A stretch of 1,131 bases of DNA from Escherichia coli (GTDB lineage Bacteria; Pseudomonadota; Gammaproteobacteria; Enterobacterales; Enterobacteriaceae), in assembly GCF_003334335.1 (NCBI RefSeq), contig NZ_QOWQ01000121.1; one strand, 5' to 3'. A program made the position numbers and the translations under genes. The notes under the pieces are model-generated. The model ran no database searches. It was not told the DNA's origin and worked only from the letters and a program-made list of their open reading frames with translations. Shown one piece after another: positions 1 to 1,131 of the stretch (position 1 is the first letter of the stretch; each line of letters begins with the position of its first letter).

Positions 1-657
1 TCAGAGCAGTCACCGCGGGTGGTGCTCTGGGAAATCGACCTGACGGTACAGGGCGGTGAGCGGTATTTTTTCTGTAATGAGCTGAATGAAAAAGGGGAGC
101 CGGTCACCTGGCAGGGGCGGCAATATCAGGCGTACCCGATTGAGGGGAGTGGCTTTGAGATGAACGGAAAGGGCAGCAGTGCCCGCCCGTCGCTGACGGT
201 GTCCAATCTGTTTGGTCTTGTCACCGGAATGGCGGAGGATTTGCAGAGCCTGGTGGGGGCCACGGTGGTCCGCCGCCGGGTGTATGCCCGTTTTCTGGAT
301 GCGGTGAATTTCGTTGCGGGCAATCCGGAGGCGGACCCGGAGCAGGAGCTGAGTGACCGCTGGGTGGTGGAGCAGATGTCGCAGCTGACAGCCATGACGG
401 CCTCGTTTGTGCTGGCCACACCGACCGAGACGGACGGGGCGCTGTTTCCCGGTCGTATCATGCTGGCGAACACCTGTATGTGGACCTACCGCTCTGATGA
501 GTGTGGTTACACGGGCGGGGCTGTGGCGGATGAGTTCGATAAACCCACCACGGATATCCGTAAGGACAGATGCAGCAAGTGCATGCGCGGGTGTGAACTG
601 CGCAGGAATGTCGGCAATTTTGGCGGTTTCCTTTCCATTAATAAACTTTCGCAGTAA
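1..657 (+). CDS. L: Minor tail / tail-tip protein, lambda gpL family (5'-partial; the N-terminus lies upstream of the window)
   Basis: Frame 1 is open from position 1 to TAA at 655-657 (the track ORF 19-657 is the same frame). The translation SEQSPRVVLWEIDLTVQGGERYFFCNELNEKGEPVTWQGRQYQAYPIEGSGF...NVGNFGGFLSINKLSQ matches my recollection of lambda gpL along its whole length, including the C-terminal cysteine-rich segment and the ...GFLSINKLSQ end. By that comparison roughly a dozen N-terminal codons lie upstream of the window. The annotated start at 19 (GTG) is therefore an artefact of the window edge, not the real start. Confidence 0.92.
   Translation, partial: SEQSPRVVLWEIDLTVQGGERYFFCNELNEKGEPVTWQGRQYQAYPIEGSGFEMNGKGSSARPSLTVSNLFGLVTGMAEDLQSLVGATVVRRRVYARFLDAVNFVAGNPEADPEQELSDRWVVEQMSQLTAMTASFVLATPTETDGALFPGRIMLANTCMWTYRSDECGYTGGAVADEFDKPTTDIRKDRCSKCMRGCELRRNVGNFGGFLSINKLSQ
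475..594 (+). other. C-terminal cysteine cluster of gpL-family protein (candidate iron-sulfur ligands)
   Basis: Cys codons at 475-477, 502-504, 571-573, 580-582 and 592-594 give the spacing C-x8-C-x22-C-x2-C-x3-C in ...NTCMWTYRSDECGY...KDRCSKCMRGCELRRN. The gpL C-terminal domain has been reported to coordinate an Fe-S cluster through conserved cysteines. Confidence 0.7.
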
Positions 658-667
658 ATCCCGGTTT

Positions 668-1131
668 ATGACACAGACTGAATCAGCGATTCTGGCGCAT
701 GCCCGGCGGTGTGCGCCTGCGGAGTCGTGCGGCTTCGTGATAAGCACGCCGGAGGGGGAGCGGTATATCCCTTGTGTGAATATTTCTGCAGAGCCGGAGG
801 CGTATTTTCGTATCGCACCGGAAGACTGGCTGCGGGCAGAGATGCAGGGGGAGATTGTGGCACTGGTCCACAGTCATCCCGGTGGGCTGCCCTGGCTGAG
901 CGAGGCTGACCGGCGGCTGCAGATAAAAAGCGCACTGCCCTGGTGGCTGGTCTGCCGGGGTGACATTCACAAATTCCGCTGTGTGCCACATCTGACAGGA
1001 CGGCGCTTTGAGCACGGGGTGACGGACTGTTACACGCTGTTCCGGGATGCTTACCATCTGGCGGGAATTGATATGCCGGATTTTCATCGCGAGGATGACT
1101 GGTGGCGCAACGGCCAGAACCTGTACCTGGA
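668..1131 (+). CDS. K: Tail assembly protein, lambda gpK family (JAMM/MPN domain followed by start of NlpC/P60 domain; 3'-partial)
   Basis: ATG at 668-670 opens a frame that runs to the window end without a stop (154 codons plus 2 nt). It is absent from the ORF track only because it has no stop inside the window. The translation MTQTESAILAHARRCAPAESCGFVISTPEGERYIPCVNISAEPEAYFRIAPEDWLRAEMQGEIVALVHSHPGGLPWLSEADRR...GVTDCYTLFRDAYHLAGIDMPDFHREDDWWRNGQNLYL matches my recollection of lambda gpK with scattered substitutions. It contains an H-x-H-x7-S-x2-D JAMM motif and a D-C-Y papain-like Cys context. Position immediately downstream of L matches lambda gene order. Confidence 0.9.
   Translation, partial: MTQTESAILAHARRCAPAESCGFVISTPEGERYIPCVNISAEPEAYFRIAPEDWLRAEMQGEIVALVHSHPGGLPWLSEADRRLQIKSALPWWLVCRGDIHKFRCVPHLTGRRFEHGVTDCYTLFRDAYHLAGIDMPDFHREDDWWRNGQNLYL
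869..910 (+). other. JAMM/MPN+ metalloprotease zinc-binding motif (H-x-H-x7-S-x2-D) within K
   Basis: Codons at 869-871 (His), 875-877 (His), 899-901 (Ser) and 908-910 (Asp) give V-H-S-H-P-G-G-L-P-W-L-S-E-A-D, an exact fit to the JAMM consensus HxHx(7)Sx(2)D. Candidate upstream acidic residues are Glu at 722-724 and Glu at 752-754 or 758-760. Confidence 0.8.
1028..1030 (+). other. Candidate catalytic cysteine of an NlpC/P60 (papain-like) domain in K
   Basis: TGT at 1028-1030 encodes Cys in the context H-G-V-T-D-C-Y-T-L-F-R-D-A-Y, which resembles the Cys-containing N-terminal helix motif of NlpC/P60 peptidases. The partner His and polar residue would lie beyond the right edge of the window. 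Confidence 0.55.

Follow-up and report, generated by a model that had tools for sequence, protein, structure and literature searches.

We analyzed the junction between the tail tip gene L and the tail assembly gene K of a lambda-like prophage in a stretch of 1,131 nucleotides (nt) of Escherichia coli DNA (contig NZ_QOWQ01000121.1 of assembly GCF_003334335.1), hereafter called the window. The junction is made up as follows:

1..657, plus strand: 3' part of the tail tip gene L (frame pos%3=1), with its 5' end outside the window and its stop TAA at 655-657.
658..667, plus strand: L-K intercistronic spacer of 10 nt, reading ATCCCGGTTT, without a Shine-Dalgarno (SD) sequence.
668..1131, plus strand: 5' part of the tail assembly gene K (frame pos%3=2), with ATG at 668-670; the first 464 nt of the gene, which runs off the window.

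The L stop, the K ATG and the spacer between them had been given at the same positions in an earlier note made from the sequence alone, and were confirmed. That note had also held that the K start might lie elsewhere and that it could not be fixed from the sequence. The comparisons reported here indicate that it can be: four independent lines (variation of the spacer, substitution patterns, extent of the JAB domain and alignment of N-termini) agree that ATG 668 is the K start, and that it is not misplaced.

The identity of both genes was established by profile searches. The L fragment matches TIGR01600 (phage_tail_L), an equivalog model with a curated cutoff of 70.75 bits, at 361 bits over model positions 5-224 of 224, and the gene is named tail tip protein L in PhiR5_1 and in the PGAP annotation of an E. 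coli prophage. Residues 3-105 of the K fragment correspond to positions 3-113 of the 114 of the Pfam Prok-JAB model (E=2.2e-16). The fragment contains the metal-binding motif of the JAB/MPN domain, i.e. Glu19 and H68-S-H-x7-S-x2-D (of the form H68-x-H-x7-S-x2-D); this motif is invariant across 12 homologues, and residues E19, C21 and G22 are invariant as well. The window is cut at K residue 154, so that the fragment would include only the beginning of a predicted NlpC/P60 (C40) domain. Pfam gave no NlpC/P60 match on the fragment, and full-length K genes that are 98.8% identical are named C40 family peptidase by PGAP. In PhiR5_1 and in the E. coli prophage K is placed between L and I, in the tail tip module M-L-K-I-J. 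PhiR5_1 is the nearest phage record to the window (97.8% identity); relatives of the window were found in 4005 of 5426 complete E. coli genomes, in about 13,800 copies (best 98.8%), and the K proteins of lambda-type phages (HK630, ev245) are about 90-93% identical to the window K over residues 1-154.

The K start was then compared among lambdoid prophages, a check that the earlier note had proposed, and ATG 668 is conserved as a start. K begins at the corresponding position in PhiR5_1 and in the E. coli prophage as annotated by PGAP. The distance from the L stop to the K ATG is 5, 10 or 11 nt in 85 close relatives (IMG/VR contigs and lambda-type phages). A wider scan of IMG/VR turned up 120 distinct contexts, whose spacers measure 4, 5, 10 or 11 nt and in which the MTQTES-type K start always follows an upstream stop. 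Relative to L, the K frame is +1 with spacers of 4 and 10 nt, and +2 with spacers of 5 and 11 nt; no spacer length divisible by three was found among the sampled relatives. Since near-identical genes thus differ by indels of 5-6 nt in the spacer, neither the frame relation of L and K nor the K frame upstream of the start is conserved. In the sampled 5- and 11-nt variants, lambda included, the K frame is closed 21-27 nt before the ATG, with no start codon in between. The spacer alleles seen among near-identical prophages are ATCC, TCCC, ATCCC, ATCCA, ATCCCGGTTT, ATCCTGTTTT, ATCCCGTTTT, ATCCCATTTT and ATCCTGGTTTT. In five IMG/VR contigs (L084, L115, L164, L048 and L205) the arrangement TAA-spacer-K is intact and the upstream L frame is cut down to 12-98 codons; prophage decay or faulty assembly is the probable explanation.

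Substitutions were counted between the window and HK630 and ev245, which are about 80% identical to it. Over K codons 1-58 (668-841), read in the K frame against HK630, 15 of the 21 differences fall at third positions, and 12 codons differ synonymously against 6 non-synonymously. The last 60 codons of L behave in a comparable way in the L frame, with 26 of 43 differences at third positions and a ratio of 17 synonymous to 14 non-synonymous codons (16 to 14 against ev245). When this same end of L is read in the K frame (59 codons), the ratio is 4 synonymous to 30 non-synonymous. These patterns imply K-frame coding from 668 onward and L-frame coding only before it, and K codons 1-58 are under purifying selection in the K frame. 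At the protein level, the JAB model is complete from K residue 3, and an alignment of 12 diverse K proteins (HK97, N15, T1-like, and phages of Erwinia, Burkholderia, Stenotrophomonas, Serratia and Proteus) puts their N-termini within 2 residues of one another. A tblastn search with K matched 1654 phage records; among the 60 matches listed, most begin at query residue 1-8.

No canonical start codon other than ATG 668 occurs in the 40 nt that follow the L stop. That ATG 668 lacks an SD sequence, as pointed out in the earlier note, holds in quantitative terms. Duplex energies were calculated between the 3' end of 16S rRNA (ACCUCCUUA) and the mRNA from -20 to -3 relative to the start codon. The best duplex at ATG 668 has -2.3 kcal/mol, with 3 nt paired and the CCUCC core uninvolved. 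Over all window positions the median is -3.9 and the 75th percentile -2.2, so that the K start stands at about the 75th percentile and does no better than a random position of the window. In PhiR5_1 the starts of three other tail genes reach about -7 (M -7.8, L -7.2, J -7.1). The value at the lambda K start, 5 nt after L, is +0.7, and no SD was found at MTQTES-type K starts in any of the 120 distinct IMG/VR contexts. A scan of the window for promoters and terminators gave no such site at the L-K junction.

The start is also located in a particular region with respect to base composition and predicted RNA folding:

614..690, plus strand: AU-rich unstructured zone that spans the L stop and the K start, with the lowest GC content and the weakest predicted folding in the window.

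GC content at the junction is 37-38%, compared to 59% for the window. The minimum free energy (MFE) of a 60-nt segment centred at 658 is -3.4, against a window mean of -17.8 (standard deviation 5.3), and the ten least structured 60-nt centres are all within 637-667. The folding minimum lies 11 nt before the K AUG in the window, and 11-17 nt before it in lambda and ev245. It is to a large extent a consequence of the low GC content: 17% of mononucleotide shuffles are equally unstructured, and the probability of being unpaired in a 330-nt context is not distinctive (0.47 vs 0.40). No clear additional RNA constraint was seen at the junction in a sliding identity window against lambda, which rises modestly (0.87 vs 0.81 overall). 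Coupling through the unfolding of an RNA structure was considered and excluded, the junction being the least structured region by prediction, with nothing to melt. A more stable structure is predicted further downstream:

694..717, plus strand: 10-bp GC-rich hairpin GGCGCAUGCC-CGGC-GGUGUGCGCC, 26 nt downstream of the K AUG, in the MFE fold of 600-720.

With this hairpin begins the most structured zone of the window, which comes right after the least structured one and in which the 60-nt MFE falls to its minimum (-32.9 at centre 730). The hairpin is only partly preserved in lambda and Stx2a_WGPS4; inspection of the alignment revealed no compensatory changes, and the predicted hairpin may be incidental.

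How is K initiated in such a context? We favor, with a probability of roughly 55%, the reading that K is translated mostly through termination-reinitiation at ATG 668 by ribosomes finishing L. L and K would be carried together on the long late transcript, and ribosomes recruited by the SD of L itself would terminate at 655-657. The K AUG would then be found at the leading edge of the terminating ribosome, in the AU-rich and least structured stretch. A fraction of the terminating ribosomes (30S or 70S) would remain on the mRNA and re-initiate at the K AUG, a coupling of the "ribosome scanning" type. Such re-initiation is expected to be inefficient, because of the absence of an SD and the 10-nt gap. 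K output would thus be a low, fixed fraction of L output, as would suit an assembly enzyme that is not found in the virion. The earlier note had proposed the same re-initiation as the simplest reading: its start position stands, and its mechanism is reasonable, with indirect comparative support. The coupling itself, the dependence of K translation on L translation and the low K output are what we infer from these data.

Several observations are in line with this reading. L and K are neighbors on the same strand, 10 nt apart, with no promoter- or terminator-like site between them. In E. coli a stop-to-start distance of -8 to +10 nt is treated as predictive of termination-reinitiation (Huber et al., PMC10666635); the window is at the upper edge of this range with 10 nt, and its relatives have 4, 5, 10 or 11 nt. 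The dependence on distance is steep: depending on the gene pair, re-initiation in E. coli is at 60% or below 20% at +14 nt, and at +38 nt it is down by 80-90% or abolished, little being left from about 20-38 nt onward (PMC10666635). Coupled translation has also been seen in vivo where no SD is present (PMC12548453). Structure after the stop is reportedly depleted where re-initiation is used (PMC7518266), and the folding minimum at the junction agrees with this. Finally, gpK was undetected in virions by mass spectrometry, and gpL is a structural hub protein (PMC10721106), with which a low K:L ratio would fit. The L-K pair resembles known coupled pairs such as hyfH-hyfI and menD-menH of E. coli (Huber et al. 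2019, 2023; PMC12548453): the genes are co-directional and in one operon, the distance is within -8 to +10 nt, there is no room for a promoter or terminator, and the products act in one assembly pathway. It differs from most characterized coupled pairs, in which the two genes share 4 or 1 nt and the SD is contained in the first of them, whereas L-K has a 10-nt gap, no SD, and a coupling that is predicted.

Indirect support for coupling comes from L-K junctions in other phages. HK97, N15, JLBYU37 and NBD2 agree with the window in gene order (M-L-K-I-J), in the N-terminus of K and in the nearness of stop and start (a few nt). The distance from L stop to K start is -4 nt in NBD2, -1 nt in Erwinia Ehr49, +1 nt in HK97, N15 and the Stenotrophomonas phage, and +2 nt in JLBYU37 and Pm34; in the Serratia phage Stoker stop and start share an ATGA overlap. 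For the most part, these distant phages, in which L and K adjoin, carry an SD within the last L codons (-6.3 to -8.4). It is weak in Ehr49 (-4.3), and Pm34 has none (-3.5). In HK97, N15, JLBYU37 and NBD2 this SD is of AGGAG or GGGG type, with a spacing of -4 to +2 nt. In contrast, the lambda/Stx-phage lineage, where L ends in NKLSQ*, has no SD at K: any SD has been lost, and a gap of 4-11 nt is found instead. The situation changes where K has been moved away from L. Three Stx phages, Stx2a_WGPS4, YYZ-2008 and PhiR12_4, serve as a natural control: they carry an insertion of 1.6-2.1 kb exactly after the L stop (window 657/658), at 748-2412 in record L005, 4158-6280 in L098 and 4158-5822 in L099. 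It contains an antirepressor and small open reading frames (ORFs), one or two of them on the minus strand, with terminator-like hairpins at both flanks. K after the insertion is preceded by AGGAG 5 nt upstream (-6.9) and has a new N-terminus, MLYSNIL..., which rejoins the common sequence at ILAHARRC. Similarly, Klebsiella Kp3 has a 300-nt gap between L and K, and GGAGG at K (-9.3). In this sample the SD is absent where a terminating ribosome arrives 4-11 nt upstream, and present where none arrives (the insertion lineage and Kp3).

The most serious rival, which is possible although it seems to us the less probable of the two, keeps the start at ATG 668 but uncouples it from L: with the help of protein S1, free 30S subunits would load on the unstructured AU/pyrimidine-rich junction and pick out the exposed AUG, and the nearness of the L stop would reflect mere genome compaction. 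The K start has what such initiation calls for: an SD is missing (-2.3), and predicted folding is weakest 11 nt before the AUG, in the stretch of the window with the lowest GC content; lambda and ev245 likewise have their folding minimum there. Scharff et al. (2011, PMC3121790) report that a start without an SD requires a local lack of structure and nothing beyond it, and that about 16% of gamma-proteobacterial genes are without SD. Moreover, re-initiation efficiency is already lower at +2 to +14 nt in some E. coli pairs (PMC10666635). A self-sufficient junction would not, however, predict that K gains AGGAG whenever it is moved from L, nor that the distance is held at 4-11 nt without an SD in 120 lambda-type contexts and at -4 to +2 nt in those distant relatives where L and K adjoin. 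K is like the genes of the SD-independent model (PMC3121790) in its lack of anti-SD complementarity and in the position of its start within the least structured AU-rich stretch. The model has free ribosomes initiating de novo, whereas at L-K ribosomes terminate just 10 nt before the start. With terminating ribosomes next to an SD-less start the two routes are inseparable by sequence, and they may operate together.

Some points weigh against termination-reinitiation as the principal route. The unstructured AU/pyrimidine-rich junction fits uncoupled de novo initiation equally well (PMC3121790). For the small class of E. coli pairs at +9 to +12 nt, independent initiation was deemed more likely (PMC10666635); the argument presupposes room for an SD in the gap, and the L-K gap holds none. 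The link between separation from L and the presence of an SD rests on one insertion lineage and two distant cases (Klebsiella Kp3 and Burkholderia E354), and the 120 contexts are related by descent. The searchable literature yielded no data on the L-K pair from ribosome profiling, reporters or protein N-termini.

A broader and rather speculative extension, which we consider unlikely, is a translational relay L->K->I in which the spacer length would set the K:L ratio and the 694-717 hairpin might help to keep post-termination ribosomes at the AUG. It is suggested by the start of gene I in PhiR5_1, outside the window: a GTG in a 4-nt overlap with the K stop, without SD (+1.2 kcal/mol). In the lambda reference I is annotated from 103 nt inside K, so that the I start is inconsistently annotated as well. 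If the relay were true, the polymorphism of 4/5- versus 10/11-nt spacers would act as a dosage knob for the JAB/C40 assembly enzyme. The L-K junction is an ordinary arrangement of closely spaced and probably coupled phage late-operon genes, with an SD-less start at a folding minimum. Its general biological weight is small, and modern pipelines already annotate K at the correct ATG. The junction nevertheless offers a natural test case for SD-free re-initiation, with spacer alleles of 4, 5, 10 and 11 nt and an "uncoupled" allele having its own SD. A by-product of the analysis is the documentation of an error in the lambda reference, which lies behind a truncated annotation of K. This concerns a codon inside the gene:

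842..844, plus strand: internal Met59 codon of K, counterpart of the annotated lambda K start (199-aa K) and not the real start.

This downstream in-frame ATG had been missed by the earlier note. In the lambda reference (NC_001416/J02459) K is annotated at 14276..14875, as a protein of 199 amino acids (aa) beginning 148 nt after L. The lambda DNA at the junction nevertheless reads TAA-ATCCC-ATGACACAGACAGAATCA, i.e. the MTQTES start is there too, 5 nt after L. Compared to every other sequence examined, one G is missing from GAGGC[G]TATTTCC in the reference (~14266 of NC_001416). HK630 is identical to lambda over about 1.2 kb save for that single G. The G is present in DE3 and in resequenced lambda (KT232076, LC730321 of 48,503 bp, PV340536 and OM418625-7), and the G-deleted version of the site was found in 0 IMG/VR contigs. 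The missing G in the 1982 reference shifts the frame, which accounts for the 199-aa annotation. It is most probably a sequencing error, a strain-specific mutation being the other possibility. As judged from these alignments, the short K is an artefact of the lambda reference sequence; the catalytic Glu is missing from it, and so is about half of the JAB domain. The window K is an orthologue of the lambda reference K, but its gene is intact and starts from Met1, where the reference is annotated from Met59. The short form is still copied in the HK630, DE3 and lambda imm21 records; the long form is used in the PV340536 and ev245 records. We found no published note on this lambda K sequencing error in the searchable literature. 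Studies based on the reference K ORF may have used a truncated protein, and clone sets derived from J02459 could be affected, possibly including that of an interaction map (PMC3224144).

A true start of K at ATG 842, with 668-841 non-coding or forming a separate small ORF, is accordingly very improbable. It has in its favor the annotation in J02459/NC_001416, HK630, DE3 and lambda imm21, to which one record adds a ribosome-binding site. Against this, the annotation goes back to the G missing in the 1982 reference and present in DE3 and at least 4 resequenced lambda records. Codons 1-58, read in the K frame, are under purifying selection, E19, C21 and G22 (invariant in the JAB domain) are upstream of Met59, and the anti-SD energy at 842 is merely -2.8.

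Starts upstream of 668 were examined in the same way:

604..622, plus strand: rejected upstream candidates, i.e. AGGA at 604-607, in-frame ATG at 608-610 and in-frame TTG at 620-622, all within L.

The earlier note had proposed this ATG, directly after AGGA, and this TTG as alternative starts; both are present as described. It had also taken the K frame to be open back to a TGA at 497-499. This was a misreading: 497-499 is an in-frame ATG within TGATGA (495-500), both TGAs of which lie in the third frame and not in the K frame. The K frame is in fact open 273 nt upstream of 668, back to a TGA at 395-397, and contains as in-frame candidate starts TTG 407, ATG 497, GTG 503, ATG 530, GTG 593, ATG 608 and TTG 620. 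A K start at ATG 608 or TTG 620 would give a protein 16-20 residues longer and overlapping the end of L. The open frame speaks for it, and so does AGGA 604-607, which is 12 nt before TTG 620 (anti-SD energy -4.3); the same AGGA touches ATG 608, with zero spacer. The candidates are not conserved: several close relatives have other bases in place of ATG 608 and AGGA, TTG 620 is missing from some, L083 among them, and both are out of the K frame in the 5- and 11-nt spacer variants including lambda, in which that frame is shut shortly before the ATG. Lambda has a stop in the L+1 frame, where aa identity is 0.48 compared to 0.80 in the L frame. The 4 to 30 ratio of synonymous to non-synonymous codons likewise argues against K-frame coding before 668, and the JAB model needs nothing before residue 3. 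An upstream start therefore scarcely comes into question for the window, and as a conserved start it is already refuted by these comparisons; the extended product would span LAVSFPLINFRSKSRF-MTQTES. A hidden gene in the L+1 frame (395-667 open) was also considered, and was rejected on the lambda stop and on the aa identity of 0.48.

The least credible reading is a fusion of L and K by programmed frameshifting, as in lambda G-T. In its favor, no stop interrupts the K frame (L+1) at the end of L, and the phrog_4199 profile runs from L into the first 62 residues of K. Against it, the frame relation of L and K differs between close relatives (+1 or +2), the sampled variants with 5- and 11-nt spacers have the K frame closed just before the ATG, and the L+1 frame of lambda contains a stop; no conserved slippery site was seen, although no search was aimed at one.

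The phrog_4199 profile (311 positions) aligns with L at 15-231 and with K residues 1-62 (window 668-853) at 236-297. Since it spans L and the N-terminal part of K, some database ORFs must fuse L to the first part of K; these are possibly read-through, frameshifted or erroneous sequences.

Two other phages deserve mention for their K starts. In Stoker, the annotation has K begin at a TTG that lies within L, 97 nt into it (record L095, 899 vs 992). The start in the ATGA overlap gives the N-terminus MISAHIEREIKKHAK, which fits the alignment of the K family, and the deposited start is probably wrong. In the Burkholderia phage vB_E354 (L089, ~955-994) K is preceded by GAGGA, a terminator-like hairpin CCCGCC-AAAC-GGCGGG, T7 and ATG; the SD-like GAGGA might come close to the K start only with the hairpin folded.

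An Rfam scan of the window gave one match only, at chance level (E=0.92). On the minus strand, an ORF of 245 aa (10..747) covers L and the junction, within a stop-free stretch at 12-876. The antisense frame is open over 312-376 codons in lambda-type phages and is not open in HK97. As a gene this ORF was rejected and judged to be a codon-usage artefact: it is codon-aligned with L, and it stays open because its stops would need the rare sense codons TCA, TTA and CTA.

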